Assembly (NCBI GenBank): GCA_051294375.1
Contig: CM119265.1
Location: forward strand, 27,224,517 to 27,288,516
Source of the DNA: Paraspadella gotoi
Lineage: Eukaryota; Animalia; Chaetognatha
Reading direction: 5' to 3'
DNA: 64,000 bases
This document shows, piece by piece, positions 1 through 31,515 of this stretch. Position 1 is the first letter of the stretch; each line of letters begins with the position of its first letter. The position numbers and the translations under genes are program-made. A model generated the notes under the pieces. It was not told where the DNA came from. It saw only the letters and a list, made by a program, of their open reading frames with translations, and made no database searches.

Positions 1-51
1 TTCCAATTCTAATAACCCCGACTCCCTCTCTTCCAGCCCCACCCCGCGCAC

Positions 52-6000: not shown

Positions 6001-7230
6001 TCACATGAGATCGCAAACGCACAGAAATGTGGTATGAAGCGCGGCGGGTGGGCGTGGCTCATGGTTAACGTTGATAGAGGTCCCCTGACTTCTTTACGAC
6101 TCAGGTGTTCCTAACAAAGCGAACCGCCGAGCAACCACAACCACAACAACAACCGCCAGAACCGGCTCCGGGTCATGAGCGAGCGCGACGGTTTCGCCAG
6201 CGGTTCCGGGAGCGAGACCCGACGCTGTTGAAGGAAATCACGTTTCATTCAAAAGACGTTGAGGTCTGCTTCGAACCGTGACGACCAGAGGGGGCGACGT
6301 GCAATACGCAGTCATATTTTAAGTCCACTTTTAGTTTTAATTTTTTCTCACTCACGTCACGCGTCTCATATTTTTTTTTAAATAATTGTTTTTCATAATG
6401 ATTTAATATATTTTTAACGATTTTAAAATGAGAACACGGTCGTTTTTGTTAATACGAATTGGTGAAAGCCGGTAATAAATCATCACTACCAAAAAAATAT
6501 AATGAAAAACATTTTAATTTGATATTGTGGCGAATCCTAAATTCGCCTCCCGTATCGCTTGTCCCTTGGCTTGGACAGCTAAGTATTCGTTCACCAACCG
6601 TGAGTTCCGGGTTTAATCCCCTCACGGTCATGCTGGTTAAAGTGTGATGGTGTCGGCATAAACACGCCAGTGACATGGGGTGGTCAGTGGTCACTGCAGG
6701 TCCAAAGCCCTGAGCGCCCAGCTGACGGCATCACACACGTCTCCCTGTTGCCAGGATACTCCGTTTTATCCACTGAACCCACAATCAATCAATCATCTTA
6801 CCAAATAATGATCGGCCGCGGGGACTTCAAGCTCCTCCTGGACAGACTCTGCCCACTCCTTCGTCACCCACCATCCGAAGAGCAACTCCGACGCCATCGC
6901 CTCCACGACGGCCATTCCCGGCGGGAACGTCTCCCCGGAACCCGGCGTCCGCACGAACTCCAGGTTCAGCATGGTCTTTTAAGGGGAGTGGGGGGAAAAC
7001 GGGACGAAGACGATCGTTGAAGGTTGGCGTTTCTTTGTTTACTACACGTTGCTTAGCAACGGATTAAATAAGCCCCTTCTCACTTTGGGAACGCCAACGT
7101 CTTCCCGATTCTGGAAGGTCTCGTCGTAAAAAGTTTCCGTCGCCGCCTCCTCGAAATAACTGACGACTTCGTCTTCGGAAAACGAGTCCGAGATTTTGAT
7201 TAGTTCCACCGACGGGAACAGCAAGACATC

Positions 7231-7273
<43 letters not shown>

Positions 7274-7982
7274 GAATGTTGTAAAGCGATCTCTTCTCCA
7301 TCGCTCGAAACAAAAGTCGCATCTAATACAACAACATCATCATCATCATCAATCACTGACTTGCAAAACAAAGTTGAGTATGTGCGTCATGATGAGGTGA
7401 GACGGGCGCGTAGACACGCCCACCGTGAGGTTCGACCGAATCTCTTGCAAGAAATCCGAGTGACTATAAATAGATTGAGGCGTTTGAGGAGTCAAGGGAC
7501 AACGCGTCGTCATGGCGACCTGAGTTAAATAGTCATTAAATAAATAAATTAGGATTAGTTAAGAAATTTATTACGAATTAAATAAAATTAACTAATTAAA
7601 ATCGTATCTTGTTAGAAATTTTAACCATAACTGTGATACCCGGGCGCGGGGTATCTCACCAACTGGCGTAGGGGCTGCGGACCCTCAGTGACCGCCTCCT
7701 GTCACTGGCATGTTTAGACCGGCTCCGTCACATTTAAGCCAGAACCGGGATACCCAGGGATTAAACCCGGGACCCGGGATGATTTAGCCTGCTCAGCAGT
7801 GAGGCAGCTTTAAGTCTTGCTGCCACAAACCCCTTTTTCCGTAGACTCACCGGCGAGGCCCCCATGGTTCCCAGCGCTCCGAGAGCGCTGGCGACGGCGT
7901 CCCCGATGAGAAGGACCCGGAAAAAGTTGATCCCGTTGGGTTCGAGGAGACGCGGCCGTCGTGAAGACGACGACGACGACAT
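52..7982 (-). CDS. vkr: Venus kinase receptor (extracellular periplasmic-binding-protein-like and Venus flytrap modules, single TM, tyrosine kinase); 3' part runs off the window start
   Basis: Multi-exon model starting at ATG 7982. Segments in order: hydrophobic leader FFRVLLIGDAVASALGAL; STRPSHLIMTHILNFVLQDVLLFPSVELI; MLNLEF...LLFGWWV...DHYL|ILRDP (phase-0 join 6802>4503); QIERLGLYVNLAFLG; LFFGWWPDVLT; VVCDWLQ. Class C/ANF-type flytrap motifs: GIKIGVDLAIEKINEDDSILKGY, VGIIGPGCT, FISYAAEG, NFLRTVP, AYAYDATWVYAKAL, FRGLSGEVAF. TM TIIFLNIFVVIVVIVAIAGIFVCFY at ~525-600. Kinase start DDWEMPRQNVVMNRTLGRGAFGT at 52-168. Confidence 0.88.
5310..6281 (+). CDS. U1/matrin-type C2H2 zinc-finger protein (ZMAT/ZNF385-like), nested antisense in a VKR intron
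   Basis: Three long-spaced fingers: CEPCKVTFTSRVHAESHYSGRKH, CDICDVRFSS...AQHLDGRGH, CDECHVIFQSATDYKDHMRSQTH. GT-AG introns. Last exon ~6104-6281 ends ...EVCFEP*. Confidence 0.75.
6525..6776 (+). mobile_element. tRNA-derived SINE, family A copy 1
   Basis: B-box-like GGGTTTAATCCC. Core TGTGATGGTGTCGGC..AAACACGCCAGTGACATGGGG...AAAGCCCTGAGCG is shared with copies at 11.6, 16.7 and 7.6 kb. Intronic. Confidence 0.7.
7636..7833 (-). mobile_element. Diverged SINE with a tRNA-like head sharing the family A core
   Basis: Reverse complement reads GGGGTTTGTGGCAGCAAG...CCCGGGTTTAATCCC...TGTGACGGAGCCGGTCTAAACATGCCAGTGACAGG...GGTCACTGAGGGTCC. Lies in VKR intron 1. Confidence 0.55.
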
Positions 7983-8524
7983 CGCGAGTCTTTGACGCGA
8001 AAAGGGAAAGAAGCGGCGAAGTTCATCGTCAGAGAAAAACCAAACTCGTCGTCGTCGTCGTCGTCCGAATCATCGTCGAGGTTTTCGTCGATCGTCGTTG
8101 TTGTTATCTATCGGGTCGTGGACTTGAAAACAGGGACGGGAGGCGCGAAGAGAGTTCTGTGCCGCGTCTCTCGCTCTCTCTCTCTCTCTGTTTGTCTCTC
8201 CTGTCTCGCGCATCGCACGACGCGCCGACCTGCTTTATTTTTTTAAGAACAAAAAGGAGAGAAGGATAACAGGTGAAAAACTGAGCGCGTGGTCTCGCCA
8301 TGCTAAGGACAGTAAGGACACGCCATGTTGCATTTTTATTTTTTTAACTGACGAAGCTAACTGAGGGGCATTAGTTTGACTCGAATCAAATTTGGCACTA
8401 AAATTTAATAATAACAAAATAGGCGAGACCGAGTAACAAACGAGTATAGCCAAAAAAAATAAAAAAATAACGAGGAAGAGGTCCAACAGTAACACAGATC
8501 AAAGTCTTTTAAAAATATTAGTGG

Positions 8525-10771
8525 TCACGTGACTTCTTCCGGTTTCAACTCCACCACCTCCTCTTCTTCGCTTTCGCTCTCCTCCTCCGCTTTTCCTTTC
8601 CCGGTCTCCATCGTCCATTGACTCGGTCCACCTTCGCCGATCCTCATTCCGGCGCCGCCGAGAGACCGCTCCAAATCTACGGCGCCGCCGAGAGACCGCT
8701 CCGAATCGAGGGCTTCGCCGTTCGAGTCGGCGTTCGTCGCCACGTCGGCGTCGTTTTCCTCCGAATCCGTTTCGCTTTGTTCCGATTCTTCCTCTTCCTC
8801 TTTTTCTTCTTCTTCTTCCTCCTCCTTCCTCCACTTCTCCATCATCTCGTCTGCCTCCATCCTCGCCTTCTTCAAATCTAATTCGAGTTCGTCTCTTTGA
8901 GTCTTCAACGCAGTCATTTGTCTACGGGCGTCCGCGGCGAAGCTGGCCAAGAGAATTTCATTTTAATCTCCCTTATTTTGACTATTTGTATAAATCTTCT
9001 ATTTATATCTTTCATCGATTGTCAAAGTTTTTCCACTACTAGAAATTTTTCTGGAATTTTCTAGAAATTTACCGTTTTCCCGGTTGTTTGTCTAATGACT
9101 ATTATATGAAATTTCAAAAATCATAAACAACTTTTTAAATTCACTTCTTCAGTAAATAGTAGCTAAAGCTTCTAATTTTCTTTAAAACCTTCTATAAACC
9201 TTCCATCATTCGCCAGAATGAATTTAAATCTTTCATAAATCCCTCAAGATTTCCCTCCCCTCCTGCTTCTTCGAAATCCCACAACTCACCCGACGGGTTC
9301 TCCCTTGGCTCGTCGTTCGGTGTCTTCGCCGAGACGAGTCTTGATTTCTTGAGTGACGGCGTTGACTTTGACGAGAGCGACGTTGGTGCAGCGTATCACC
9401 TTGGTAACGGAATCGAAAGGACATCACTTTTCAATCTCTTTCCTCATTCAACAAACTCCATCTCCATCACCTGCTCTTTCTCCAGCATCAACTTCCCCGC
9501 CATCTGCAGACAACAGATTTCCTGATGCGCGTTCATCCCGACGATGACTTTCCCGTCCATCGTCTTCTCCTCCAAATCCGTTGGGTCGACCACCATGTGC
9601 TTCCCGCTCTCCATGAAGGCGAACGTCGTGCAAACTGAGGTAAGTTAGTATGTGATAAGCTAGTTCAGTACATATTCGCTACACAGAAATGTCAATAAAA
9701 CATTCGCACACACTCGGAATGTGATGAACTGAGAGATGAATGGGATCTTTGTCGTCGAAGGAATGGACTGTGATATCGTCTCGGCTTACCGTGACGTCGG
9801 GGCGTCTGTCACGGATTCAAAATTGTATTCATTTCCCCAAAAGTAAAACGAAGGATCGAATTAAATCAAGGCCAGGCCCACTGACCGGAAGTGAAGCAGC
9901 GCCGCCATCGCGGCCATCGAGGCGGCGTCGATCAAGTTTCCTCGATGATTCAAGACGTGAATGTCGACGCAAATATCCCAAACCTTTTCGCCTATAAAAA
10001 TATTTAATTTAAGGTTATATTACTTAATTCATCAATTATAAATTAATAGTCTTGACCCACCGGAAATGACGCAGAGGGCCTCGAGGTCGACGCACTTGGA
10101 CTCTTTGATGAGTCTCTCGAGAATTCGCGAGATTTCCACGTGGAGATCGGAATTGGGTCTATTAGCCTCGAACTCGGGCGCCGCCATCGGAGAGAGTTCT
10201 GGGAATTGGGGGGGGGGAGGATGAGAAAATATTGTAACATTTGTGTGTATTGATTGGTAACGATGCCGTACCGTGCCCTTCAACTTAAACGGCCCCTCAC
10301 TTCTTCTGCGACTCAAATGGGGGAAACTCAAACCTTTTTTGGTCGGAAGCATCTCGTTTTATTAGGTACCCATCTATGATTCTTAAACTACCAAGAAGCG
10401 GGCTAAATACAGCCGCCAGTCCCTCTCTGGACTGTAAACAGGCCGATATTCAGAGAGAGAGAAAGATAACCTAAGAAATGGGCCCAACAACGGATTTTGC
10501 TTTCACCCTCTCTTCAAAACCGCGACCCACCCACGTTGATCTTCATGAGTCCCTCCGCGGGTCGGGCGTCCTTCGGAGAGTTGATCTTACAAGAGACTTG
10601 AGACAGAACCCGCGTCTCTCCCAGCGTCACTTGAGCGCAGCCAAAGTCGACGCCGAAATTGAGGACGACGTCGCGGACGTCGTAGGGGGCGCGGCCGTCG
10701 AGGCGCCGACCCTCGGCCAGCGCCGCCAGGACGAAGGACTGTTCCACGTTAGACAAAGGAAGATCCTTCAT
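8525..10771 (-). CDS. EXOSC9: Exosome complex component RRP45
   Basis: MKDLPLSNVEQSFVLAALAEGRRLDGR; ELSPMAAPEFE; ESKCVDLEALCVISG; LNHRGNLIDAASMAAMAALLHFRRPDVTV; VVDPTDLEE; acidic tail with IGEGGPSQW. Multi-exon. Confidence 0.95.
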
Positions 10772-11070
10772 GGTGGTCGTTGTTGTTGTTCTGACTAATA
10801 TTGAATACGGTTTATATGCGAAGTCATGAATATGTCTGGAAACCGGTTTTATTCACATCTAAACAAAAACGAAAATATTTTTAAGTCAATCCGGTAGAAG
10901 TAAGAAAACATGGCTAAAATCGATTAAAAGCGACAACATTTCTTTGCAATTCTCTGCAACTCTTTGCCATTGACCGAATTAACTTAACTTATTAAAAGTC
11001 ATATCAAATAACGAGCGAATGAAACAAAACGGAACTCTTTGCATCAATAGAAAGAAAAAGAAAATCCTGG

Positions 11071-13361
11071 TTAAGGCAGTTTCCATGTCCTAATCATGTC
11101 CGCGACGAACAAGGCGGTCAAGTACACCGAAGCGAACGCCCCCTTGTCGTCTTCTCCTTTTCTCAAAAACTGTTTCGTCCAATTGGGACATGAGATTAAA
11201 GAGCAGCCGCTTCTCGAGATTTCCGTCGAGGCTTCCTTGACACCGCACTCCTCGTTCACTTCTCCTTTCCTCGACGCCGTCCCTCGCCGCAACAGCTCCT
11301 CCACGAGGTTCGCCGCGCTCTTGACGTTTCTTCCGACGCGGAGGCCGAAGTGGGCGGCGACGCGGTCGGGTTTCACCTTGAAGACATTGACGCCGCAATC
11401 GAGGTGTGTCTCTTCGCGAAGAGCGAGGTGAGCGACGACGAGGCCTTCGACGAAGGCAGAATTGACGCCACGCTTGATCACGGCCGGGTTGCGTTCCGTT
11501 GATCTGGTCGGTCGGTCCACGAGGAAATAGGCGTCGGCGGGAGGGAGACTAGGGGATTAAGAAAGAAGAACACTATAAAATTGTTGACTGAATGAAAGAA
11601 TATGTATGTTATGGCAACAGGGAGACATATGTGATGCCCAGGGTGTGAGGCATGTCCCGACAGCTGCCGCTCAGGGCTTTTGGACCTGAGGTGACAACCC
11701 CAAGTCACTGGCGTACTTATATCGGCACCATCACTTAACCTGCCCGACCGGACCGGATTGGTAAGCGAGTACTGAGCTTTCCAAGCTAATGGGACGAGCT
11801 GAGTTTTGCCGAGCTATACCGGAGGCGAATTTAAGATTCCCCACAATACACTACATTCAATTACTCAGCAAGCGCGGCGGAGACGCCCTCCAAATATCTC
11901 GCGTGCTTGTAAGTCGATTTTTGGTCCGAGGACGAAAAGTCAAAGTCGAGAAAAGTCACGAGATCGAGACTCAATCGAGACTGGATGGCGATCGTCGACG
12001 AGCTCCTTTTCGTCGACTTGCCCTCCTCCGGCGAATACGTGGCATCCCTTATTTCCTTCTCACTTTCCGCCGTCACTCTCGCGGCGACGATCCCGCTCAA
12101 ATCTACGTCCAAGACCGCAAAGGAGGCGAGGCGCTCCACGTCGCCCTTCGAAGGGCGAGGGACGCAAAAGGCGGGCGCGGAAGAGTCCGTTCGATCAGAG
12201 TTGGCGAGGATGGACTGACAGATGGACTCGATTTCCACGAGACTCAAACCTGGAAAGAAAGGGGGGGGGGAATTGATACGGATAAGGAGTGGGGATTTTT
12301 AAAAACAAGGAAAAACGATTCCAAGGTTTCGAGCCGCGTAACCGGATTTTAAGATCATCATGTGATTAAATGGTATGACAAATGTTATGAAAAAATGTTA
12401 TGTTATGCTATGTTATTATCTTATAAAGACTTTAACCAACCATAGCCTGTCGAAAGTCATGGGCAAGGTAACTACGAATACATTTTTTATATTGTTTATA
12501 AAATTTTCATATGACTTATGCATAATTGTCCCGAAGTACATCACTTATCAGCTAAATATAAATGATTTAAAACAACCCGGTATTGCATTTGTTTTAATTA
12601 CTTAATCAGGTGCATAAAAAGAGTCATTTAGTGCGTCACCCGTCTACCAAGTAATAATTAAATTTGGTCACGAGTACGAGTATGAAAATTTCAAAAAAAC
12701 AAAAAAAACAAAAAAAAACAAAAACAAAAAGACAGACAGACTGACCGAAACCTTATAATAACGCACTTTCTGTCAGGAGCAAGTCGGAGAGACGATTGAT
12801 CGAATCTTCTTCCGAGAGACGAAGTCGCGTTCTTCTTTCCGTCTTGAATTTCTCGATCTTCGCCGCGCGTCGCTTTCCAAATTTTGGGATCGATTCCAAC
12901 TCTGTCTTAGACGAACTGAGATGAAAGAGGAGTCTCATCATTACCTTGTCACTTTGTCTCCCACACTCGCATGCTCTCTCTCTCTCTCACCCATCCACCT
13001 ACCTGTTTATAACTTCAACGATTCTCTTCTGTTCCTCCTCGGAGTAATTCTCCGACAAATATCTTTCACCCAAACGAAACACTACGCGGTCGCCGTCCTC
13101 CACATCGGGGTCGTGAGGTGCCTCCTTCGAAGCGACGCTGTTCTCCGCATCGCCGTCTCCCAGCGCCTCCTTCGAAGCGGCGCCGAATCGTCTAGTGACG
13201 ACAGGAGTCCTCTCCGACAACTTAATCGATTTCGTCGTCCCGACGACGATCGCTCGTGCCTTCGAAACTGCAGCCTTCCGAACGCACCACGTCGCGAATT
13301 TGAGGCCAAAAGTCGGCGCCGCTTTGAGCGCGCGCATCGATGACGTTCGAACAAGATTCAT
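11071..13361 (-). CDS. TEFM: Mitochondrial transcription elongation factor
   Basis: Basic transit-like N-terminus; YSEEEQKRIVEVIN..SSKTELESIP (HhH region); IESICQSIL; ARYLEGVSAALA..PPADAYFLV; VAAHFGLRVG..KSAANLVEELL. Motif order matches recalled TEFM. Four exons. Confidence 0.78.
11612..11846 (-). mobile_element. SINE family A copy 2 (TEFM intron)
   Basis: Reverse complement aligns to 6525-6776 (GAATCTTAAATTCGCCTCC ... ACGCCAGTGACTTGGGG ... AAAGCCCTGAGCG ... GTCTCCCTGTTGCCA). Confidence 0.7.
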
Positions 13362-13622
13362 GAGAACAACTTCGTCCAATGACAAAAAAAAGGTTCGGAA
13401 CGAAAAAAAAAAAACTACTGGAGGAAATATTCATCGCAAAAAAGAAGCAGTTGTGGCGCCATTAACACAGTCATGAAACAAATCATGTTGCAGTGGATTC
13501 ACTCTTATACTTTTCGATAAAATTGGCGGAGGCAATTCGCCATCCCTAAAACGCAGATAAGCTGAAGCGTCACGTTTCGGACGTTGTTCGGTCTCGGGGC
13601 CTTCATATCCTCGACCTTCCGC

Positions 13623-14030
13623 CTAAACCTCTCCTCCAGTCCTCCACCTTCGCCTTAACCTCTCCACGATCATCCGCCTCCGCGCCCAACCGAGACTCTC
13701 GTCGTACTTAGCCCGACTGTCGGGATCGCGCAGAGCTTCGTAGGCGACGGCGACGGAGAAGTAGGTCATGCGGTTGAAATCGGCCGAGTATTGGGCGGAG
13801 GGAGACTTGTCTTTGGGATTGAGATCGGGATGGTGAAGGAAGGAAAGGCGCTCGTAGGCTTCTTCGATGTCCTCCTGAGATGCGTCGACGGGCAGTTCGA
13901 GGATGTGGTAATAGTCGGACCGGGAGGGGGAGACGCTGAAGGCTCGGGCGGACGCGGGAAAAGAGAGGGACGAAGGAGGTTTACGAAAAAGAGTCAGCAG
14001 CGCCGCAGTCGCCGCACGCTTCATTATCAT
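13623..14030 (-). CDS. Small single-exon J-domain protein, probably mitochondrial (DNAJC30/DNAJC4-like)
   Basis: Transit-peptide-like start; DYYHILEL...IEEAYERLSFLHHPDLN (HPD motif)...AYEALRDPDSRAKYD. Confidence 0.85.
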   Translation of the reverse strand: MIMKRAATAALLTLFRKPPSSLSFPASARAFSVSPSRSDYYHILELPVDASQEDIEEAYERLSFLHHPDLNPKDKSPSAQYSADFNRMTYFSVAVAYEALRDPDSRAKYDESLGWARRRMIVERLRRRWRTGGEV

Positions 14031-14240
14031 CGTTAATAAATTAACCTAATATAAAAACAATATCTTATGATATAAACGAGTGATCACGAATAATTCTGGT
14101 GCGCTTTTTTTTTCGCGGGAGTGGGTTGTATCCAAGCGGTGAGCAAATCAAGGGTTACACACGCAAAGGCCCGTTTATTATTCCGCTAACGATTTTTTTT
14201 AAACAACAATTGAGTTTGATATTTAAAATCAATTTATTAA

Positions 14241-15749
14241 TCATAAATCCGTTCTTAACAAGGTTCTGTGTCGAGTCTCTCCCGATCCCTGGCGATACGA
14301 ATTGAAATACATGTAGCGCGAAAAAAATATATAGAGCCAACGGAACCAAACCAACTGGGACTGATGAGCCTGCATTGCTGCGAGGGTCTGAGAAAGAGAG
14401 AGAGAAAGGTAAAAAAAAGGTAAGGTTCCAATCTCGAGACATTTATGTCCAGAGTAAAAAAGTTCATTTTCACAAGCTTGCGAGATCGCGATTCCCAGCG
14501 TGATGTTAAAAATGAATTAGTTTTAATTATTGTATTTATCTAATCTAATTTAACTAATCTACATTTATAATCACCGGCACAATCTACGATTTCGCGTTCA
14601 AATTTTCAGTCGTTCCCGCCAAAATCTCTTGATATCGGATGTTGTTTCACAATGTTTAAAATTAATAAATATATTTCCAATAATTATCACTGATAAATTA
14701 CTTTTAAGTATTGAGGAACGCTGGAGACGAAATAGACGTCCCTCTGAGACCCGGTGAGGAACAAGGAGTCAAGGAAGGAAGAGTATTTCCTGCCGAGGCT
14801 CACTGTCTTCAGAAAATACACGACTGACTTTTCCTGCGTGAAAAAAAAATCTAAATTTATTTAACGTTGTTTTTTCGTAGCCTAGCGACGCTTTTTAAAA
14901 AAATTTTTTTTAACCTTCTGAGATCTTGAGAACTGAGAGGCACCGTGAAAAAGAGAAATGTGATTCTTGTGTCCGCTCACGCCGCGTTCGTCGAAGGTGA
15001 AAATGGCGCTAAAGTTGTGCGTTTCCTGCATCCTGCAACGGGAGTGAGGGGGGGAAGGGATGAGATATGGTGAAGCCTTCACTGGAGGGAGCGAAAAAAA
15101 ACCTTTTTTGAATCACATTCGAGTTTGTTAACAATCAGATCGTTTTTTTTGAAAGAAAAGAAAAAAAAAAGAAAAAAAAAAAAAAACCTGGCGATGGAAT
15201 TGGCGATCGCCGTCGCGTCCCAAGTCAAACGGGGATCGTCGTCAAAGTCTTCGACGACGACGTTGGTTCGATCGATCCCCAAATTCATCCCCGCCGCCTG
15301 CAATTCTTTGACGCGGACGGAACCGAGGCCGTCGTAGTCGCCGCTCGACAAGCAGAGCAAATGAACCTCGAAACCTTTCGAGCAAAAAAAAGTAAAAAAA
15401 AGAAGACTTTAGCGATCGTAAAAAAAATGATGAGTTTCGAAGACCTTACCTTTTTCGACGAGGCTCAAAATGGTGGGGGCGAAGAACATGACTTCGTCGT
15501 CCGGGTGAGCCGTCAGCAGCAGAACTTTCGAGGCGGGGAAGTTCAAGAGTTGGAATCGGCTGCGATGACGCAAGACCAGAAAGGCGATGAATCCGAATCT
15601 TTGGTGGGGGAAGAAATGGGGGGGGGGACCGGAAATAAGCGAAAGGGTGAAATCGGATTCGCGTCACGAATCTGAGATCTGATATTCTTCCGTCTTACTT
15701 ACCCCAATAAGGCAATGATGCAAAGCACAACGATAACAGATGCCGACAT
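14241..15749 (-). CDS. PIGL: GlcNAc-PI de-N-acetylase
   Basis: N-terminal anchor MSASVIVVLCIIALL; VLLLTAHPDDEVMFFAPTIL; LCLSSGDYDGLGSVRVKEL; TFDERGVSGHKNH; AMQAHQSQLVWFRWLYIFFSRYMYFN. Confidence 0.95.
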
Positions 15750-15964
15750 CCCAAACAGATGCGAGCGACGTCGAGGATAGCTTTTCTTAAGCCAAAAACT
15801 ATATGAGTTTTCTTTGGGGGTTTGGGAGGGAAATGAAGAGCAAGGCGAAGAACAACTTGGAGAAGATGAATTCGCAATAATGTTTTTTTTTTTAAATGGG
15901 GGTCGTTCTATTAACAACTGGATGTTTAGTTTTTTGGGTTTTTTTTTGTTTCTTCCCCCTCCTC

Positions 15965-16263
15965 TTAACCGGTTTGGTTGTTCTGAGGAGGAGTCTCCCC
16001 AAGGAGCCCGTTCAAGGCCAGATCGGTCCACTTCTGCTCCGCCTCGGCCAGAGTCTCTTGGGTCTTTCCGTTGTCGGGCTCCGGTTCGGGCAACTCCATC
16101 GCCGGCACCATCACGTCGTCGTCGGGCAATCGATCCTTATTAAAAAATTTTTTTAAAATAAGAACGAATAAATTATTCTAAAAAAAAGACAATATACCTT
16201 CCGCCAATCGTCGTCCACCAAATCCATGAGATGCTCGTCCGGTTGATATTGACTGTCGCTCAT
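15965..16263 (-). CDS. ANAPC13: Anaphase-promoting complex subunit 13
   Basis: Two exons: MSDSQYQPDEHLMDLVDDDWRK|DRLPDDDVMVPAMELPEPEPDNGKTQETLAEAEQKWTDLAL...*. Confidence 0.93.
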
Positions 16264-16421
16264 CACGACGCTTAAACAATAACAGTTTTCACGACACTGA
16301 AGTGTAAAAAATAAACATAAACAAGCATAAATAGTAAACAATGTCGTTGGTGGTGAGAGAGAGAGAGAAAAAAAGGAATGTTAATTATTATTGACGAGAT
16401 CCTTTTTCCTTTTCTTTGTTT

Positions 16422-19400
16422 TTAATCTTCTTTCTTCTGATGATCGAGATTAATATCTAAGTGGAAATCTTTAGGTCGGGACATTACGGTGGACCACATC
16501 AGCAGCCAGAGCGGAAAATAACCTGAAAATAAAATAAAATATTTTTTTTTCATGAAATTTGCAAAATTGTCTGCTTAATTTAAGATTTTATATCGATGTT
16601 GGTCTGGAAATAGGATAAAACACAAGGATAAAATACTTTCAACTCTGGGTTTTTAATTAAAAATTATCATTCTTGTCAGGAAGTTATTTATTGATAAAAT
16701 ATGTAAATACTGAGGCGAATCCTAAATTCGTTCTATCCCCTCACGGTCACGCTGGTTAAGTGTGATGGTGTCGGCTTAAACACGCCAGTGACATGGGGTG
16801 GTCGCTGCATGTTCAAAGCCCTGAGCGCCAACTGTCGCGAGATGGCTCGCACCCCTCACACACCAGGCATCACACAAGACTGCCCGTTGCCATAATATAT
16901 TGGTTGTACCAATTTCATAATATATTTGAGCCTGGAGTTTCTTACCCAAAACGGCAATGGTGATAGTTTGAACTCCGTGAACGTGAAGATCCACGACTGA
17001 ACTGAACAATCCTTCCTTGTACACCTTGATTGAAAGAAGGACGAAATATGTCTGGTTGATAATGATATTTCACCGAAAACACACTTTTGCTGACTCTCTC
17101 TCTCTCTCTCTCTCTCACCGAAAACACCCTGGCCATTTCTACATCCTCGTCGTACATCAGCATCCGCATCACGACCCCATAGAGAAACAGCATCGGGGGC
17201 GAGACGGCGAGAACAAGAAGAGAAGTGACGCCGCGAGCGAGGAGCGTCTCCCTCGGACTCGTCACCAACGCCACGGGGACGACGATGAGGGACGTCAAGA
17301 GGGCGAGAGAGAAGTTGGTGAGGGAGAGGGAGAAGAGGAAGAGTGCGAGGAGCATGAGGGAGACGCACTTGAGAAGAGCGGAGGTCGAGGTGGTCATGCC
17401 GCGGGAGAAGGGTGCGTCGTGAGAATGGCCTGTTCGTATGGGGAAAAGGAAGGATTTGAACTTATTCGGATCTGACCAAAATTAATCAAGTTGTCGTTCC
17501 TTCACCATTAACCTTGAACGATGCAGGCGACGGAGGTCGGGGGCGCGCGTTGCGACGAAGAACTTTCCACGATTTTGCTGAGATAAACGGGGATGATGAG
17601 GATCGGGGTGAGCAAAGCCACGTGACCTAAGAGAAGACCCGTCGAGAGGGGAACGCGGAAGACGCGTCCCGTGTCCATGAAGAATCGGTGACTAAAGAAG
17701 GGGAAGCATTATTGTAAGATCAGTAAATTGTTTAATTTTAAAGTCTAACAAAGATCCGTCGTATTACATGCAAGAAAGAAAATAAAATCGCTAATAGAAT
17801 TCGTTAGAAAATACAATGGTGAGAAATTGTTTTGCTCACTCTGTTCAAACGCCGGTATTTTTCTCTCTCTCTTTCTTTCCCTCTCTCTCTTTCTTTTTAC
17901 AATTAGCCAATCTGATTCCATTCGCTTATCATTTCAATAAATCTTCCTCTCATTTTGTTTACCATTTTCATCACGACCACCTCCACTGCGACCAAGTCTC
18001 GATTGAAATTGTTTTCTCCTCCAAATACCTGACGAAAATGACAAAGGCAGCGAGGTAACTGTAGGCAAGGTTGATGACGATGTGAAGCACGTTGACGGGC
18101 GGTTTGGGCTCCTCGCTCTCATCCTCTTCATCCTCCCTTTCTTTGTTGGGGTTGGAGCAGAGATTTCGAATCATTTCCTTGGGGAAGGAAGTAAAACAGT
18201 TTTTTTAAAGACGTTAAGTCTCTCGTGAATAAATCAATAAATAAATCATCGCCGGCCGAACCTTCAACGGTGGAATAAGTTCCATCATTCCGGCGTCGGA
18301 CCAAAGAGAAAAGGCCTGGACGATGAGAGGAACGACGATGAGAGCAAAGGGGCGCATGTAGAGACCGATGGAGACGTAACGCTCCGTCGCGGGGAGGACG
18401 TAGAAAAAGAACGACTGAAAGAGTCATGGAAATAAAAGAAGGCATGGAACTTGCAGAAGCCATGGACGTCAAGGGAGACTATACGTATATCTCATGCAAA
18501 ATACATTTCGTAATTGAACATTGAACAATGAACAACACAAAGAGTCCTACCAAAAATGACAAGGCTAACTCCTTTTCAAAAAACCCCCTCACCTGGTGAA
18601 ACCTTTCCAACAGATTGTTCAAACTCCTGAAGATCGATTCCACGATCCTCGCCATCTCCAAAGCTCCGAACCTCGCGTCGGACGGGGCTCCCTCGAGGGA
18701 GGAGAGGGTAATGGCTTCCACGTGATACTTGTGAAAGAGGCCGTGATTGCCCGAGTGGTAGCCCGTCGCCTGGCCGAGCATGCCACGGGCCAGGGTCTTG
18801 AGCGAGTGGAGGAGGCCGTTTCGAGAGTTGGGAGATTGGTGATCCACGCGGTTCTTCAGTTTGGGGACGATTCCTTCTTTTCTGAAGGCGGGAGGGAGAG
18901 AGAAAAATGGTACATTTTTAAAAAAACAGCATAGCAGCCGCAAATATAAAGTGTCTCGTAACCAACCGGATCATCCTGACGGCGAGGTTGACGAGATCCA
19001 AGTTCGGCAATTGACCGTTCAATCCCTCGATCTTTAAATCGATCGCTGCCAATTTCTTAGAATTCATTTCCAAGTTGATCGCAGCTTGAATTGAGCCGCC
19101 TCTGGCTTGCAGTTCCGCCGTCTAGAGAAAAATTAAAAATGATTCAATGGTATTAACGTAAATTATTAATGTAATTGTAATGTAATGTAATTGTCCCGAT
19201 CGACTTACCTTGAAGTGGGTGGACGGCATTTGATGATAAGCTTCGAGCCAGGCGGCCATCCCAACGTCCTCGTGGTCGGTGACGAGGACGATGATGTCCT
19301 TGGCCCAGTAGGTCGTCTTCCTGGCAAATTGCGCGAAGGCCAGCATGGTAGCTATGGCGTAATTGTTTTCCGGCTTGAGGCCGTTGTCCGGAGGTCGGTA

Positions 19401-20028
19401 GGGAGCGCTGAGGACCACTGATTCTGTGCTGGGGGTTCGAAGGGCTCGCATTATGCCGTACACGTTCTTTCCTGGTGAGGAAGAGCGAGGATTTAAATGT
19501 TTCTGATAAACAAACGACAACGATTGAAATTAAAGCAGAGAAATACTTATAAAATCGTTAATTCCGAATTCGTGGAAAACCTGGAACGGCCTCGCCATCG
19601 GCGATCCCAAACGGATACGAGACGTTGTATTCATGGACGTAAGCCTCGAGGCCGATCTTCCTCATTGCATCGACGAGCCACTCGGCGGGGATCGAGCGAC
19701 CAGCGGCTTCGGCCTGCGGCGTCAAGGCCGCGTGGAAGCTGTGGATGGATTTCTCGTCGTAGTATTCGCCTGAAGTGATTTGAATGTTAATTTGGTATTT
19801 TTATTGGTTTACTCTCTCGTTCTCTCTCTTTCCCCCCACCGACTTACCTTGGACTAAGCCAGGCAGGAGGGCGTTCTCGCTGAAGTAGGTCCCGTCATTG
19901 TATCCTCGATAGGCGAGAATAAGGAGATGGGCGACGCCGGTCAAGTAGGAAAGAAAGCAAAGGGCCTTAGAGTTCTTTTTGATAAACTTAATGATCCTGG
20001 CGCCCAGGCGTTGTTTGACAATCGTCAT
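16422..20028 (-). CDS. GPAA1: GPI transamidase subunit GAA1
   Basis: GTYFSENALLPGLV; GKNVYGIMRALRTPSTESVVLSAPY; YWAKDIIVLV; EGLNGQLPNLDLVNL; ESIFRSLNNLLERFHQSFFFYVLP..RYVSIGLYM; multi-TM C-terminus. Confidence 0.96.
16712..16893 (+). mobile_element. SINE family A copy 3, internally deleted (last GPAA1 intron)
   Basis: GGCGAATCCTAAATTCG joins almost directly to ATCCCCTCACGGTCA..GTGTGATGGTGTCGGC, matching copy 1 apart from a gap. Confidence 0.7.
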
Positions 20029-20134
20029 TTTTTTTTTCAAATTACTAATGGTGAGAAAAAAAATTGACTGACATTATTAATATTATAGTAAATATTTGAC
20101 GAGTTTACCGTTTATTGGACATTCATTCAATGTA

Positions 20135-20650
20135 TCAGGTTTGCTTTTTATGTATCTTATCATATACGAACTTAGCCGAAACCACATCTTGCACGGTCAT
20201 TCCTAAGTTTTTAAAAATCGTGGTTTTGCTTCCCACGTCGCCTTCTCCCTCGATAAATTTTCCTTCTTGCCGACAACGCAGCGCGACTTCGCCCAACTCC
20301 GCCTTCATTAAATCCACAGCACCGCTCAGGATGATGTCGCCAGCTTCAGAGGCAGCGCCGGTACGACTGTCGACGATCACGAGGCTCTCCCTGACCAGAC
20401 TCGCCTCAAGCACTTGCTGGTCACTCCCGGGGGCGCCGGCGGCATTTATGTGGGAACCAAGTTTGACAATACTCTTAAACAAAATGGGAGTCGTGGCCAG
20501 CGTGGCCGTGACAATGACGTCAGCGTCATGAACAGCTTCTTCAGCCGAATCGCAGGCTAGAACGCCGAACTCCTGGGCAAAGGCTTCCCTCTTCTCTTTT
20601 GGCGGGCTCCCGGACAAGTTTTAACACTTCTAAATGGCTGCGCGCCTGAT
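20135..20650 (-). pseudogene. 5'-truncated tandem duplicate of CRYM (C-terminal half)
   Basis: ORF 20135-20617 parallels the CRYM C-terminus. The upstream remnant HQARSHLEVLKLVR is out of frame because of a deletion. The N-terminal half is absent. Confidence 0.8.
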
Positions 20651-20891
20651 GCCACTATAATAACCAAATTAGATCAAGATGATGAATTAAAATTTATTCA
20701 AAATCAAATAAAGTAGCTATCACAGATGAGTCCCATTAATTAAAAAACAGATAAAAAAACAAAACAATTGTAATAAATATTCATTATAGATTTTGATTAA
20801 AACCTGATTAAATAAAAAAATAATTGAAATTTAACTTTTGAGACATCAATTATATATTAGTCGCCCAAGGGGTAGTTTTTCATTTGTATTT

Positions 20892-21845
20892 TCAACCACA
20901 AATTTTGTCATAAACAAACTTTGCTGATACAACATCCTGAACAGCCATTCCCAAATTTTTAAAAATGGTGGTCTTGCTTGTATAGTCGCCCTCTCTATCA
21001 CAAGATATTCCTTTTTGTTGACAGAGCAAGGCAACTTCACCCAACTCTGCCTCAATTGAATCCACAGCACCGCTTAATATAATGTCGCCAGCTTCTGATG
21101 AAGCACCAGCACGACTGTCCACAATCACACGGCTCTCCCTGACGAGACTCGCCTCAAGCTCTTGCTGATCACGCCGGGGGGCACCAACGGCGTTGATATG
21201 GGCACCAGGTTTGACAAAACGTTTTAACAAAATGGGAATCTTAGCCAATGTAGCTGTCACAACAACATCTGCATCACGAACGGCTTCCTCAGCTGATTCG
21301 CAGGCCTGGATGCCAAAGTCCTGGGCAAAGGCCTCCCTTGACTCTTTGCGAGGGCTCCAAACAGAGATGGTCTCAAAATCCCGGACCAGCCTCAATGCAA
21401 CCAAGTGGCTGCGGGCTTGATGCCCTGACCCAAGGATGCACAGTTTTTTGGAGGATTTTGGCGCCAAGTATTTAGTAGCAACAGCGGAGACAGCAGCTGT
21501 TCGCATCTCAGTAATCACCTCTCCGTCCATTAGGCAAAGTACCGACCCATTGTCCGGATTAAACAAGATAATTGTAGCGTGATGCGTTGGGACGTCAGTA
21601 TTATTAGGAAAAAGTGTGACCATTTTAGTCGCCAGTGCCTTGTCCTGGGCGCTATATCCTGGCATACTGAACAAAAAGCCATCTTGTTCCTTTACGGGAA
21701 CCGTCAACCTTACAGGCTGAACGATACCCCCTTCCTCGCCTTGGGAATATCTGATCATAGCTTTTTCCATCAAGGGAATCAACTCTTCCATGCTGAGAGT
21801 TTGACGGACGTTTTCCGATGAAATTTGTAAAATAGGTTTGCCCAT
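20892..21845 (-). CDS. CRYM: Mu-crystallin / ketimine reductase (ornithine cyclodeaminase family), intronless
   Basis: QPVRLTVPV, MPGYS, ALATKMVT, MDGEVITEMRTAAVSAVATKYL, ILGSGHQARSH, GAHINAVGA, FKNLGMAVQD. Confidence 0.95.
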   Translation of the reverse strand: MGKPILQISSENVRQTLSMEELIPLMEKAMIRYSQGEEGGIVQPVRLTVPVKEQDGFLFSMPGYSAQDKALATKMVTLFPNNTDVPTHHATIILFNPDNGSVLCLMDGEVITEMRTAAVSAVATKYLAPKSSKKLCILGSGHQARSHLVALRLVRDFETISVWSPRKESREAFAQDFGIQACESAEEAVRDADVVVTATLAKIPILLKRFVKPGAHINAVGAPRRDQQELEASLVRESRVIVDSRAGASSEAGDIILSGAVDSIEAELGEVALLCQQKGISCDREGDYTSKTTIFKNLGMAVQDVVSAKFVYDKICG

Positions 21846-22075
21846 TTTGACTGCTTTGGCAACGAAAAAAAATAAAATAAAAATAAAAACGAAATCAACG
21901 GAGTTATACAAAACTTTAGCTAGTGAGTTAACAAGTGCACCATAAAACCGTGTAACAAATATGCCATATACACTTTATTCAAAATATGCTCATTGCTTAT
22001 TAATAAGTTCCTGAATCGAAAAACAAACAAATTACAAAATATATGCCCAAATGCGACGAGCTAAATTTAATAATT

Positions 22076-23758
22076 TTAAAACCCAATGAAGACCCCGTCG
22101 CTCCTTGGGTCACAGCCTCCGATCCAAGCAATTGTCGACCCTTCAACGTCATCAACAAACGATTCTCTCCGAATCACGTGACCTCTTCCAAACAAAGTGC
22201 GATCAAATCCTCTCAAAGGGCCGACGACAGAATGTCCACGCCTTTCGAGTTCGCGGTCGACCTCGGCCGGTATACCTTCCTCCAACGATACGTCCCCGTG
22301 AGAACCCTCATGGCCGGGACCGACGCAAAAGCGCGGGACCTGCAGCGCCTCTTGTGGACTCAATCCACGCAGGATCATGTTGAGAAGGACTTGCACGTGA
22401 CCCTGCGGCTGCATGAACCCGCCCATGACGCCGTAAACGGCGATCAATGAAGAATCAATGGGCGAAGTCACCATGGCCGGAATTATAGTGTGGTAAGGCC
22501 GTTTGAGGGGTGCCACGCAATTTGCGTGACCCTCTTCAAGAGAGAAATTCAAACCACGATTGTGAAGCGAAAACCCACAATTTTCAGGAACGATTCCCGT
22601 TCCGAATCCCATGAAGTTGCTGTTGATAAAGGAGCAGGCATTGCCGTTAGAGTCGACAGCGCAGAGGTAAACTGTGTCACCTTCGCTAGAGAGAGAATTG
22701 ACACCGATGTCGCTGGAGACTGATTTTAAAGCCTCGTCGTTTCTAATCAGCGCCGCCCTCGATCGCGCGTATTCTTTGCTCAACAGCTTTTTCAGAGGAA
22801 CGTCATAGTGGACGGTATCGGCGCAGTGGCGCTCGGCGTCGGCGAAGGCCAAACGAATCGCCTCGATGAGAAAGTGGAAGTAGTCGGCCGACCCGGGCGC
22901 CGCCGATTCGAGCCGATCGCCGAGAGCGTCGAGAATGTTGAGAGCGATTAGGGCCACGATCCCCTGACCATTGGGCGGAATTTCCCAGAGACGATGTCCG
23001 CGAAAATCGGTAAAGATCGGCTCGACTTCGTTGGAGGCGTGGCCTTGCATGTCCGCGGTCGTCAAGACGCCTCCCGCCTTTTGGACCGCAGCGACGATGG
23101 ATTTCGCTATGAGCGATTCGACATCGTAGAAAGTCTTTCGGGCGCCGTTTTCGCCAAGAGTCTTCATGACCCTCGCGAGTTTCGGATTGCGGAAGACGTC
23201 GCTAGATGAGGGACTCCTCGGCCCCAAGTCGTCCATCACTAGGAGATCTTCGCCCCAGGAATTGTCCGGTCGGCGGAGGAGGCTTTCGCCGGATTTCCAC
23301 AGGTGCTCCACCCAGGGGCCGACGCAGAATCCTGACTCGGCGATCTCGACGGCGGGTTGGAGGATTTCCGCGAAGGAGAGACGATGAGAGCCGAAGAGGC
23401 GAAGGGCGTCCTCCCACGCGGCCGCCGCGCCGGGCACGGTGACCGCGAAGCCGTGCGTCGGCGGAATGCCCTTGGAGAACCCAGAGGCGTCGACCTTCTC
23501 CAACGTCAATCCGGCCGGCGCTCTTCCCGATCCGTTGAGGCCACGCACACGCTTCGTAGCGGCGTCGTAGAAGAGGCAGAAGGCGTCGCCGCCCAAACCC
23601 GTGGCACAGGGCATGGTAACGCCCAGCGCCGCTGCCATAGCGACGGCGGCATCGGCGGCGTTGCCACCCTGCTGCAGAATCCGCAGACCGGTGTGGGAGG
23701 CAAGTGGCTGCGAGCAGGAAACCGCGCCGTGAGAATGTCGAGCCGGGGCGGAGGTCAT
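22076..23758 (-). CDS. Gamma-glutamyltranspeptidase / glutathione hydrolase, YwrD-like subfamily, intronless
   Basis: SQPLAS..G..IL..GGNAADAAVA, GLGGDAF, WEIPPNGQG, catalytic Thr in GDTVYLCAVD, KRPYHTIIP, GVMGGFMQPQGHVQ, DPRSDG. No N-terminal membrane anchor. Confidence 0.95.
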   Translation of the reverse strand: MTSAPARHSHGAVSCSQPLASHTGLRILQQGGNAADAAVAMAAALGVTMPCATGLGGDAFCLFYDAATKRVRGLNGSGRAPAGLTLEKVDASGFSKGIPPTHGFAVTVPGAAAAWEDALRLFGSHRLSFAEILQPAVEIAESGFCVGPWVEHLWKSGESLLRRPDNSWGEDLLVMDDLGPRSPSSSDVFRNPKLARVMKTLGENGARKTFYDVESLIAKSIVAAVQKAGGVLTTADMQGHASNEVEPIFTDFRGHRLWEIPPNGQGIVALIALNILDALGDRLESAAPGSADYFHFLIEAIRLAFADAERHCADTVHYDVPLKKLLSKEYARSRAALIRNDEALKSVSSDIGVNSLSSEGDTVYLCAVDSNGNACSFINSNFMGFGTGIVPENCGFSLHNRGLNFSLEEGHANCVAPLKRPYHTIIPAMVTSPIDSSLIAVYGVMGGFMQPQGHVQVLLNMILRGLSPQEALQVPRFCVGPGHEGSHGDVSLEEGIPAEVDRELERRGHSVVGPLRGFDRTLFGRGHVIRRESFVDDVEGSTIAWIGGCDPRSDGVFIGF

Positions 23759-25015: not shown

Positions 25016-27020
25016 ATGCTCCTCCGCGTTTCCCTGCTCTTACTCCTTTGGACCGTCTTCCTGGACGCGGCACCAGTCACAGCGCCTCTCTTAGCCCGGG
25101 ACGGCGCCGCGGCGCCGGATGACGAGTCGATCCTCTCGTTAAACTTGGTCGAAGCTGAGGCGGCGGTGGTTCGATTCTTCAAGAACGACCTCTCAATGTC
25201 GATCGCCAGAAAGAAGCACCATTTCCGGACCCTCTTCACTTGTGACCTCTGCAAGACGGCCACGTATTTCATCGAGCGCGTCTTCCGATGGACGAAGAGC
25301 AAACGGACCCTCATCAGTCGGACCATCTCTTTCTGCAAATTCTTTCGCTTTGAGGAGGACGACGTCTGTGAATCCATAATCCCTCTCTACGCGGACATGG
25401 TGATCGACGTGGCGCGGAACACCTCGCTCACCGGCGACCAGATCTGCGGCATCATATTCGGCAGTCAATGCGCCGGATCGATCGGCGTCCAGTGGCGAGT
25501 GAAAATCCCCTCCAGCCCGCCCAAGCCGCCGGTGCGACCGCTGCGTCCGCCGCCAAAAGGCTCACCAACCAAGCGGATCCTCCACTTGACCGACACCCAC
25601 ATCGACTTCCAGTACGCGCCCGGAACCAACGCCGACTGCCCGCGCCCTCTCTGCTGTCGCAAAGAGGCCGGAGTAAGCGAAGACGCCGACGACTCCGCCG
25701 CTGGATACTGGGGATCGAACCTCAAATGCGACACGCCGCCCTGGACCTTCGTGGATCTCCTCAAGAGGCTCAAGGAGCAGGAGAAGCAAGAGGGAAAGTT
25801 CGACCTCATCTACTGGACGGGCGACGTCCCCGCCCACAACATCTGGAACCAAAGGCAGCCGGATCAACTCACCGTCATCCAACGAGTCGCCGATTTGATC
25901 GACGCCGCCTTCCCGGACACGCCCATCTTTCCGTCGCTTGGCAACCACGAGGCGTCGCCGGCCAACTCCTTCCCTCCGCGCGACTTCGACGGGAACCACT
26001 CCATGTCGTGGCTCTACGACCGACTGGAGAGAAACTGGATTCGCCGGCTGCCCAAGGGATTTTCTCCCGACACGATCAAACGCGGCGCCTTCTACTCTGT
26101 GCTGGTGGAACCCGGCTTTAGGATCATCTCCCTCAACTCCAACTATTGCAACAACCTCAACTTTTGGCTGCTGCTCAACACCACGGATCCGCTTGGCCAG
26201 TTGGGTTGGCTCGTCGACGAGCTGCTCCGGGCCGAAGCGGCCGGCGAGAAGGTCCACATCCTGGGCCACATTCCGCCGGGGCTTCCAGATTGTCTCAAGT
26301 CGTGGTCCTTTAATTTTTACAGCATCGTCAACCGGTTCGAGTCCACCATCGCCGGTCAATTCTACGGACACACCCACTTTGACGAGATGGAGATCTTTTA
26401 CGACGAAGCTACGCTCAAGGTTACCTAATGCTTTGGACATTGATTTAATAATGATTGGATAAATATAATTATTCAATTCAAATTTTTAAAATTATTCAAA
26501 TTTTACTCCAAAGCGTCCCGTCAACGTCGCCTACGTAGCGCCTTCCGTCACCACCTACGTCTACTTGAACCCCGCCTATCGCGTCTATACCGTGGACGGG
26601 TCCCGTCAAAACTCGACGCGTTACGTGACCGAGTCGGAGACGTACATCCTCAACGTTACTCGCGCCAACCTGGAGAATCGTACGACCTGGGAGCGGGAGT
26701 ACGCAGCGACTGAGGCGTACAATCTGACGACGCTCTTCCCCGCGGATTGGAACGGCCTCGCCCACCGCATGGTCGAGGATCGTCCGCTCTTCGACAAATA
26801 CATCCAGCATTTCTACAACTCGTACGAGAATCACGAGACGGACAGCGACGCCGACATTCTTTGTCGGCTCGTGACGGGAAGGTCGGACGATCCCGATCTT
26901 TGTAAGGAGATCGTCAAGGATTTCAAGGCTGCAGAGAAGAGGAGGAAGAGAGAACGCCACGCCCCTTCCGGTTCGGATGACGACCAATTCGTCTTCAAGA
27001 AAGTTCCCAGCCTTTGCTGA
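25016..27020 (+). CDS. SMPD1: Acid sphingomyelinase (saposin-B plus metallophosphoesterase)
   Basis: Signal peptide; saposin Cys pattern; Pro-rich linker; DTHID, WTGDVPAH, LGNHE, GHIPPG, YGHTH; intron 26420-26513; PSVTTY..LNPAYRVY. Confidence 0.96.
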
Positions 27021-27313
27021 TGGTTTTAACCTCAATTGCTGTCTATTATTCACGGTGAAAGTAGTTTTATTTCTATTATTATTTATTCGTCGTAATTTCT
27101 CTTTACTTGTTCGAACCGTTTTACCAATGTTTTTATTATTTAAAGTTTTTATAATTCAAAGTATTTCTTTTTGCCTTGGTTTTTAAATAGCTGTCACTCG
27201 CACTTTTGCGACCTAACCTTCTTATTTTTCATTTGCAGGTCTTTTTAAATACGGAGAGATTGAGGCTTCCTTTACCTACTCAAAAACTTTTACGTAAATA
27301 TAAAAAATAAAAA

Positions 27314-29570: not shown

Positions 29571-29852
29571 CCGTCCAATTAGATCCGGGGATCCTTCTCA
29601 TCGATCAATTAGATCCGGACATCTCACCCTCGAATCTCTCAAAAACTTGTTTAAAGTAAAGGAAGTCTCATTCTCTCATTGAAAAACGAAAAGACGCTAA
29701 CGTTTACACTTTTGTTTTGTCAAGCCGTTCGTAGTATTTGGCTTTTTTTTTTTTGCGATTTACTTAAAAATTAAATTTTAAATATTTTTTAAGTGAGGTT
29801 TTTTATCGTTTACTCACCAACCAGAAAAAGTTAGACGTAATCACATTGAACA

Positions 29853-31449: not shown

Positions 31450-31515
<66 letters not shown>

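Follow-up and report, generated by a model that had tools for sequence, protein, structure and literature searches.

Whether closely spaced genes on one strand are transcribed together or one by one is the question raised by a 64,000-nt stretch of the Paraspadella gotoi genome (GCA_051294375.1, contig CM119265.1, positions 27,224,517 to 27,288,516; hereafter the window, with coordinates counted from its first letter). An initial annotation, made from the letters, had described an operon-like run of nine co-directional genes with unpaired splice acceptors before their start codons, had proposed that the run is resolved by spliced-leader trans-splicing, and had called this notable should operons of this sort be unknown in the lineage. 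Chaetognath leaders and operons have already been published (PMC2481426, PMC12460157), so the supposed novelty falls away, and the run is best described as a probable operon, or operons, of a kind already known in chaetognaths.

Results

Nine functionally unrelated genes, GGT, CRYM, GPAA1, ANAPC13, PIGL, a J-domain gene, a TEFM-like gene, EXOSC9 and VKR, lie head to tail on the minus strand (Table 1), and exon models with GT-AG introns, which supply the open frames from GGT through EXOSC9, confirm the nine co-directional genes first reported; the VKR start is at 7982. A same-strand run of at least nine genes among 13-16 genes has a probability of 0.012-0.018. From GGT to VKR the stop-to-start gaps are, in order, 230, 106, 158, 215, 210, 261, 299 and 542 nt, a remeasured range of 106-542 nt that agrees with the earlier estimate of ~107 to ~540 bp; the GPAA1 value of 106 nt is measured from a broken CRYM copy and becomes 863 nt when measured from intact CRYM. 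Under the operon spacing criterion of PMC12460157 (at least two genes in the same orientation, spaced by under 250 bp), five of the eight gaps (one of them measured from the CRYM fragment) fall below the limit, and 261, 299 and 542 nt exceed it; at these three, transcript ends overlap or abut. The window has a GC content of 43% and short introns, and an Rfam search over it returned only two tRNAs. Xenoturbella has published values compatible with this GC content and intron length, but its published supplementary data contained neither the VKR peptides of the window nor any other VKR sequence, and it was discarded when the chaetognath leader came to light; Oscarella was discarded because CRYM identity was 51%.

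Table 1. Features of the window discussed in the text
Feature	Position	Strand	Basis and remarks
GGT (gamma-glutamyltranspeptidase family), one exon	22076..23758	-	Pfam PF01019 1.9e-125; first of run
CRYM (mu-crystallin family), one exon	20892..21845	-	PF02423 2.6e-80; on GGT's contig; AG at 21852-21851
CRYM, broken partial copy	20135..20651	-	tblastn, repeat D8
GPAA1, 11 exons	16422..20028	-	PF04114 on 3 exons; AG at 20046-20045
ANAPC13, 2 exons	15965..16263	-	PF05839 3.3e-08; AG at 16298-16297
PIGL, 6 exons	14241..15749	-	Exon model; two short exons match PF02585 below cut-off
J-domain protein (DnaJ), one exon	13623..14030	-	PF00226 7e-15; AG at 14047-14046
TEFM-like gene, 4 exons	11071..13361	-	Exon model, three RNA joints
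U-rich tract and AG (10860-10859), putative EXOSC9 trans-splice acceptor	10859..10875	-	Contig start, motif score
EXOSC9, 7 exons	8525..10771	-	RNase_PH / RNase_PH_C (Pfam)
EXOSC9/VKR border; two tandem AGs overlapped by AATAAA 8239-8234	8230..8239	-	Sequence
VKR-like receptor kinase	1..7982	-	Pfam PF01094, kinase exon, 5550-nt contig; continues beyond window
SMPD1, EF1-gamma-NDK fusion, PITRM1-like	25016..33964	+	Compact same-strand run, genes spaced by 293 and 282 nt

Pfam matches above cut-off were obtained for GGT, CRYM, Gaa1, Apc13p and DnaJ, and support for RNase_PH_C in EXOSC9 comes from one exon. The VKR-like exons encode a Venus-flytrap domain, a membrane span and the start of a kinase; one ANF_receptor exon lies above and one below the Pfam cut-off, and the second-best PDB match of the kinase-start exon is Venus kinase receptor 2. 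The TEFM-like protein gave no Pfam match of note and no PDB match, its Atlas match (0.86) is to a Ydc2/RuvC cluster, and its predicted identity as TEFM is only a lead. Identity of CRYM to named proteins is at most 55% and of SMPD1 at most 51%, with the named matches scattered over hemichordates, arthropods, molluscs and amphioxus and none to a named chaetognath protein. The CRYM fragment, which covers residues about 142-156 and 164 to the end at 73-76% identity, is frameshifted and lacks a start.

The RNA evidence comes from one run (X1) and consists of assembled contigs rather than reads; two further runs, X2 and X3, matched the window in only 4 and 7 short stretches, respectively. All but one of the 15 X1 joints listed are GT-AG introns of the gene models, including eight of the ten GPAA1 introns and the PIGL joints at 14387 and 14832. 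With introns joined out, five of the eight borders between genes are bridged by spliced contigs, and at a sixth two contigs share 30 nt. Gapless pieces cross GGT/CRYM (on a GGT contig that begins at 23958 and covers 20889-23958), CRYM fragment/GPAA1 (where the fragment is transcribed from 20654 on, in piece 19847-20654 of the GPAA1 contig), and PIGL/DnaJ and DnaJ/TEFM, the J-domain gene sitting inside piece 13003-14387. Length and depth accounting places GPAA1 and ANAPC13 within one contig, the ANAPC13 joint 16134-16197 having the same depth as the GPAA1 contig, and gives the 30-nt overlap of the ANAPC13 and PIGL contigs. Because 15 of the 17 intron-holding bins carry no extra depth, DNA background does not account for the bridging. 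Between CRYM and its fragment (20655-20888) no bridging long contig was found among those listed, and the mean depths on the two sides of this interval are 61.8 and 229.1; TEFM/EXOSC9 and EXOSC9/VKR are likewise not joined by contigs in run X1.

A contig over two genes is not proof of one transcript, since overlapping untranslated regions look identical. The main competing explanation is that each gene has its own promoter in the last exon or 3′ UTR of the gene upstream, giving overlapping transcripts, some of them trans-spliced singly with removal of an outron, and no polycistronic precursor. Overlap and read-through are indistinguishable in contigs, the TEFM and EXOSC9 contigs share 16 nt yet stay separate, and about half of P. 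gotoi genes are trans-spliced whereas only 18% are operonic (PMC12460157), all of which would suit such an arrangement; it would, however, require six or seven promoters within transcribed 3′ UTRs, in gaps of 106-299 nt and all on one strand, and a comparable arrangement in Spadella cephaloptera, RPS14-PCNA, has been interpreted as an operon (PMC2481426). We consider individual promoters quite unlikely.

The four AGs put forward as acceptors by the initial annotation, at 21851, 20045, 16297 and 14046, are present, and none was observed paired with a cis donor in the X1 contigs, which pass through all four without a joint (three directly, that of ANAPC13 by length accounting). The U-rich tracts ahead of them do not rise above chance: the pooled U-tract and YAG score of the eight downstream genes is 54, where shuffled sequences gave 50.7 +/- 6.8 (p = 0.36), and uncorrected single-gene tests with two scores gave p < 0.05 for one of nine genes in each (PIGL in one, EXOSC9 in the other). 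With two scores against shuffles and no pooled excess, the acceptor motifs were rejected as support for an operon. An equally good-looking AG at 24998, that of SMPD1, is an ordinary cis acceptor according to its RNA contig.

No leader was seen on any of the nine genes, the four AGs included, among the six X1 contig loose ends listed in one comparison and the 6 of 12 listed in a second; none of six exact leader motifs occurs in the window. De Bruijn contig assembly discards short side branches, so that a leader should be lost at any site that also has a read-through path. For comparison, trans-splicing was called in PMC12460157 from five or more leader-bearing reads.

The best-supported acceptor of the run is the AG at 10860-10859 ahead of EXOSC9, which is absent from the four first proposed. 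Depth and length arithmetic place the beginning of the genome match of the EXOSC9 contig at 10858, the first base past this AG, with five letters unplaced, and the same start was recovered in two separate comparisons (117.0 and 328.0 nt). Only 15 of the 299 positions in the TEFM/EXOSC9 gap follow an AG, and the U-tract and YAG score of EXOSC9 is the highest of the nine genes. Five is also the length common to the published SL1 and SL2 forms at their 3′ ends, so that the contig start and the unplaced letters fit a leader remnant; the letters could alternatively be the last five of a cis exon lying upstream, with weak donors at 10974-10988. That stable read-through RNAs go unresolved at most borders, with chance AGs and downstream genes expressed from minor starts, is very improbable: the unbroken contigs, the chance-level motifs and the lack of a leader among the loose ends listed would agree with it, but assembly loses just such short branches, the EXOSC9 contig begins exactly at an AG, and downstream frames of an unresolved eukaryotic polycistronic mRNA are poorly translated.

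At the last two borders the ends are those of contigs rather than mapped poly(A) sites or RNA ends. The TEFM contig ends at 10843, 16 nt past the EXOSC9 AG, and an AATAAA lies at 10853-10848, downstream of that AG. At the next border the EXOSC9 contig (piece 8238-8942) ends at 8238 with two unplaced letters, and the first letters of the VKR contig, from 8235 on, are genomic (piece 7849-8235, from record position 1), so that the two abut within 2 nt.

Discussion

Our data favour a tight chaetognath housekeeping run in which GGT to EXOSC9 likely form one or two polycistronic units resolved by spliced-leader trans-splicing. This mechanism is now likelier because the lineage is chaetognath and RNA contigs cover most borders. 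The original proposal is partly supported: no leader was seen among the loose ends listed, and a single unit of all nine genes is doubtful at VKR. Polymerase would start upstream of GGT, perhaps with a second start near the CRYM fragment, and read through; cis introns would be removed from the precursor, each upstream mRNA would be cleaved and polyadenylated in or just past the short gap, and a 36-nt leader would be spliced to an AG that precedes the start codon of the downstream gene, supplying the cap. As the 3′ end of TEFM appears to lie beyond the EXOSC9 acceptor, any given precursor could become either the TEFM or the EXOSC9 mRNA but not both.

VKR, a signalling receptor after a 542-nt gap and a member of a class reported to be depleted from chaetognath operons, more likely has its own start, and its membership of the operon is doubtful. 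We regard it as somewhat unlikely that GGT to VKR form a single nine-gene operon with the TEFM poly(A) signal downstream of the EXOSC9 acceptor and a mutually exclusive junction. If this were true, the operon would tie with the longest known in chaetognaths and end in a signalling receptor, and 3′-end formation and leader addition would compete at TEFM/EXOSC9 and could set the ratio of the neighbouring mRNAs.

In C. elegans SL2 operons, which need about 100 nt of intercistronic DNA, polycistronic housekeeping clusters are resolved by a leader, as is likewise proposed here. SL2 is specific to operons in C. elegans, unlike the leaders of chaetognaths, which have no operon-specific form (PMC12460157, PMC2481426). 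Like chaetognath operons, the present run consists of housekeeping genes of mixed function that share one orientation and lie very close together, and as in RPS14-PCNA, where three bases are involved, transcript ends meet or nearly meet at a border. At eight genes (nine with VKR) it comes near or equals the longest P. gotoi operon, which has nine; its gene content differs from the ribosomal proteins, ubiquitin and proteasome genes named there (PMC12460157). An upstream RNA end at or beyond the downstream acceptor, as suggested by the contigs at TEFM/EXOSC9 and EXOSC9/VKR, resembles the operons without intercistronic DNA of Ciona intestinalis and the SL1-type operons of C. elegans, for which it is argued that at such junctions a precursor can give rise to one mRNA or the other, the two being mutually exclusive (PMC1488885). 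TEFM/EXOSC9 differs in combining an overlap of at least 16 nt with a canonical AATAAA downstream of the AG, most Ciona operons having no AATAAA (PMC1488885). The run adds no lineage; its value is that of a long, compact example whose borders are readable base by base, and at TEFM/EXOSC9 it can be tested directly whether polyadenylation and trans-splicing compete, as has been suggested for the operons of Ciona and those of SL1 type.

A second tight run lies on the plus strand (Table 1), in which the SMPD1 RNA contig continues into EF1-gamma and the third gene is presumably PITRM1. The SMPD1 contig starts with 31 loose letters that are absent from the window and unlike published leaders. EF1-gamma makes a chaetognath lineage very likely, and an origin in some other lineage with a similar EF1-gamma, for which operons would be new, very improbable. 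In a search with an EF1-gamma exon, the best 15 of 45 matches are marine-type proteins that also carry the NDK insertion. Among 80 loci fetched, three (L001-L003, the three closest) have starts identical to SL2.0 over 25-26 letters, with Table 3 of PMC2481426 as the reference. In a quick tree of 118 rows, made without bootstrap, the window EF1-gamma sits on a long terminal branch (0.26); a set of 17 rows unites it with L001 (SH-aLRT 99) and one of 36 rows with L001-L003 (SH-aLRT 100); the NDK insertion is common to it and the SL2.0-bearing L001.

A run of nine genes on one strand

The initial annotation had proposed an operon-like run of nine co-directional genes, and our models place all nine on the minus strand in the order GGT, CRYM, GPAA1, ANAPC13, PIGL, DnaJ, TEFM, EXOSC9 and VKR, with stop-to-start gaps of 230, 106, 158, 215, 210, 261, 299 and 542 nt that agree with the earlier sizes to within one base. 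A run of nine on one strand in 13-16 genes has p ~0.01-0.02. The 106-nt gap is counted from a broken partial CRYM copy (the CRYM fragment); from intact CRYM the distance is 863 nt. The models contain 25 GT-AG introns (median 87 nt), with open frames in eight of the nine genes, and the ninth gene, a Venus-flytrap receptor kinase (VKR), extends past the window edge. Most gene names are backed by Pfam; the PIGL score is under the cut-off, on two short exons, and the TEFM name is a lead.

Features in and around the gene run (window coordinates)
Feature	Position	Strand	Remarks
Nine-gene run	7982-23758	-	GGT to VKR
CRYM fragment	20135-20651	-	tandem, broken, partial; protein identity 76%; transcribed as leading part of GPAA1 contig
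X1 piece	20889-23958		spans GGT/CRYM border
X1 piece	19847-20654		spans CRYM fragment/GPAA1 border
X1 piece	13003-14387		spans PIGL/DnaJ/TEFM borders
Variant stretch just past CRYM stop	20846-20888		roughly half of contig depth carries six substitutions plus a single-base gap; either divergent allele or paralogue
zf-met (PF12874) zinc-finger frames	5253-5860	+	opposite strand to VKR, apparently within VKR intron; may be gene or relic
Dispersed short intron repeat	6521-6800, 7686-7742, 11612-11848, 16707-16829		copies 79-93% alike; high RNA contig depth
Second tight run	25016-33964	+	SMPD1, EF1-gamma-NDK and a third gene, presumably PITRM1-like; gaps 293 and 282 nt
SMPD1 contig start	24772	+	31 leading letters absent from window; junction not at AG
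EF1-gamma	27314-29570	+	NDK insertion
Inverted repeat	35737-35866		near-perfect; 64-nt arms, 94% complementary; spacer 2 nt
Tandem duplicate, ~9.5 kb	about 39200-47900 and 48700-57100		holds methyltransferase frame and tRNA

RNA contigs across the gene borders

The RNA evidence comes from one sequencing run, X1, which is kept as assembled contigs, contains 0.99 of the GGT-CRYM words sampled and is presumed to be RNA, 14 of its 15 listed joints matching model introns. Three gapless, mismatch-free X1 pieces span gene borders (see table), and length and depth accounting assigns ANAPC13 to the GPAA1 contig and gives this contig 30 nt in common with the PIGL contig (15918-15947), the size expected between adjoining pieces of one assembly graph. 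No crossing of the stretch from CRYM to the CRYM fragment was seen among the long contigs listed. The depth bins are reproduced by the contig model, and no extra depth was present in 15 of the 17 bins holding introns (the other two hold a dispersed repeat and part of PIGL); thus, genomic DNA is not the explanation of the covered gaps. A contig is not a single molecule, and overlapping UTRs could account for the border crossing; separate promoters with such UTRs are an unlikely explanation.

Putative acceptor sites and the spliced leader

At the TEFM/EXOSC9 border, the EXOSC9 contig matches 328.0 nt of its first exon in the genome (117.0 nt in the bin of a second alignment), so that the match begins at 10858, the base directly after an AG; 15 of the 299 positions in this gap follow an AG, and this one has the best U-tract among the nine genes. 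Five letters of the contig are unplaced. The spliced leader (SL) forms SL1 and SL2 have five letters in common at their ends, according to PMC2481426, and the unplaced letters may be the remnant that an assembler would leave on trimming two leader branches, although SL1 is rare in the species for which counts exist; alternatively, they may be the end of an upstream cis exon. The TEFM contig ends at 10843, so TEFM RNA appears to extend at least 16 nt beyond the putative EXOSC9 acceptor, and an AATAAA lies past that acceptor at 10853-10848. At the next border the EXOSC9 contig ends at 8238 and the VKR contig begins at 8235, with an adjacent AATAAA that overlaps two AGs; because the VKR contig opens with genomic letters, no leader is indicated there.

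The AGs quoted earlier as acceptors ahead of CRYM, GPAA1, ANAPC13 and DnaJ are present, but the gaps are U-rich anyway and the motif showed no excess over chance: the pooled T-before-YAG score of the eight downstream genes was 54 versus 50.7 +/- 6.8 in shuffles (p = 0.36). Individually, one of nine genes exceeded shuffles with a cis-acceptor weight matrix (PIGL, p = 0.02, uncorrected) and one by T count before YAG (EXOSC9, p = 0.03, uncorrected). As a control, a look-alike AG ahead of the SMPD1 start (24998) is the 3' end of an ordinary 69-nt 5' UTR intron, which shows the risk of reading such AGs as trans-splice sites.

No leader was found on any of the nine genes among the loose ends listed (six X1 ends; 6 of 12 in the other alignment). 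In the three loci closest to the window EF1-gamma (L001-L003), the first 25-26 letters match SL2.0, a chaetognath leader listed in Table 3 of PMC2481426, without a difference, and no other locus with such a start was found among 80 loci fetched with the alignment of the EF1-gamma group. A quick tree (118 rows, GST part only, excluding loci below 170 aligned residues and proteins below 400 residues) joins the window EF1-gamma to L001 at SH-aLRT 99 and to all three at 100. A chaetognath origin of the window is very likely on this evidence, and another lineage is highly improbable.

Proposed polycistronic transcription and its alternatives

The proposal of an SL-resolved operon stands in part: the run is real, spliced contigs cross most of its borders and it is probably operonic, but the motif test failed and the listed ends carry no leader. 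We consider it likely that GGT to EXOSC9 are polycistronic, in one or two units, and resolved by leader addition. Introns would be removed by cis splicing, cleavage and polyadenylation would fall within each gap or just beyond, and the leader would be added at an AG ahead of each downstream start. At a border where the upstream RNA ends past the acceptor, a given precursor would be made into either the upstream or the downstream mRNA but not both, as PMC1488885 argues for operons of Ciona and for SL1-type operons of C. elegans. Read-through without resolution would also carry contigs over the borders, and we regard it as highly improbable. The operon reading is weakest at VKR, at the CRYM-fragment border, in the motif test and in its use of one RNA run.

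SL-resolved operons are already known in Chaetognatha, and the run would add an example. PMC2481426 describes 36-nt leaders from two chaetognath species, together with an operon, RPS14-PCNA, in which three bases separate the poly(A) site from the acceptor, and PMC2566580 places chaetognath leader genes within 5S clusters. For P. gotoi, PMC12460157 reports 10,197 of 21,072 genes as trans-spliced and 18% of genes as operonic, with nine genes in the longest operon, signalling genes depleted in operons and no operon-specific leader.

Neighbouring features

The SMPD1 run lies head to head with GGT, ~1.26 kb away, and the SMPD1 contig also continues into EF1-gamma. The best named matches of CRYM and SMPD1 reach 55% and 51%, with no close named relative for either; SMPD1 relatives at 61-65% occur in metagenome-type collections. 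In the window EF1-gamma a nucleoside diphosphate kinase (NDK) domain is inserted after the GST domains, an insertion common to the best 15 of 45 EF1-gamma matches (P0250-P0264) and also found in leader-bearing L001; a paralogue group without it stands beside the NDK-bearing group. The window protein ends after 449 residues, without the C-terminal EF1G domain kept in relatives. The fusion is possibly chaetognath-specific, and a single literature search found no report of it. Numerous small gaps separate the ~9.5-kb tandem copies, which are otherwise 82-93% alike, so the second copy could have arisen either in assembly or by an old duplication.
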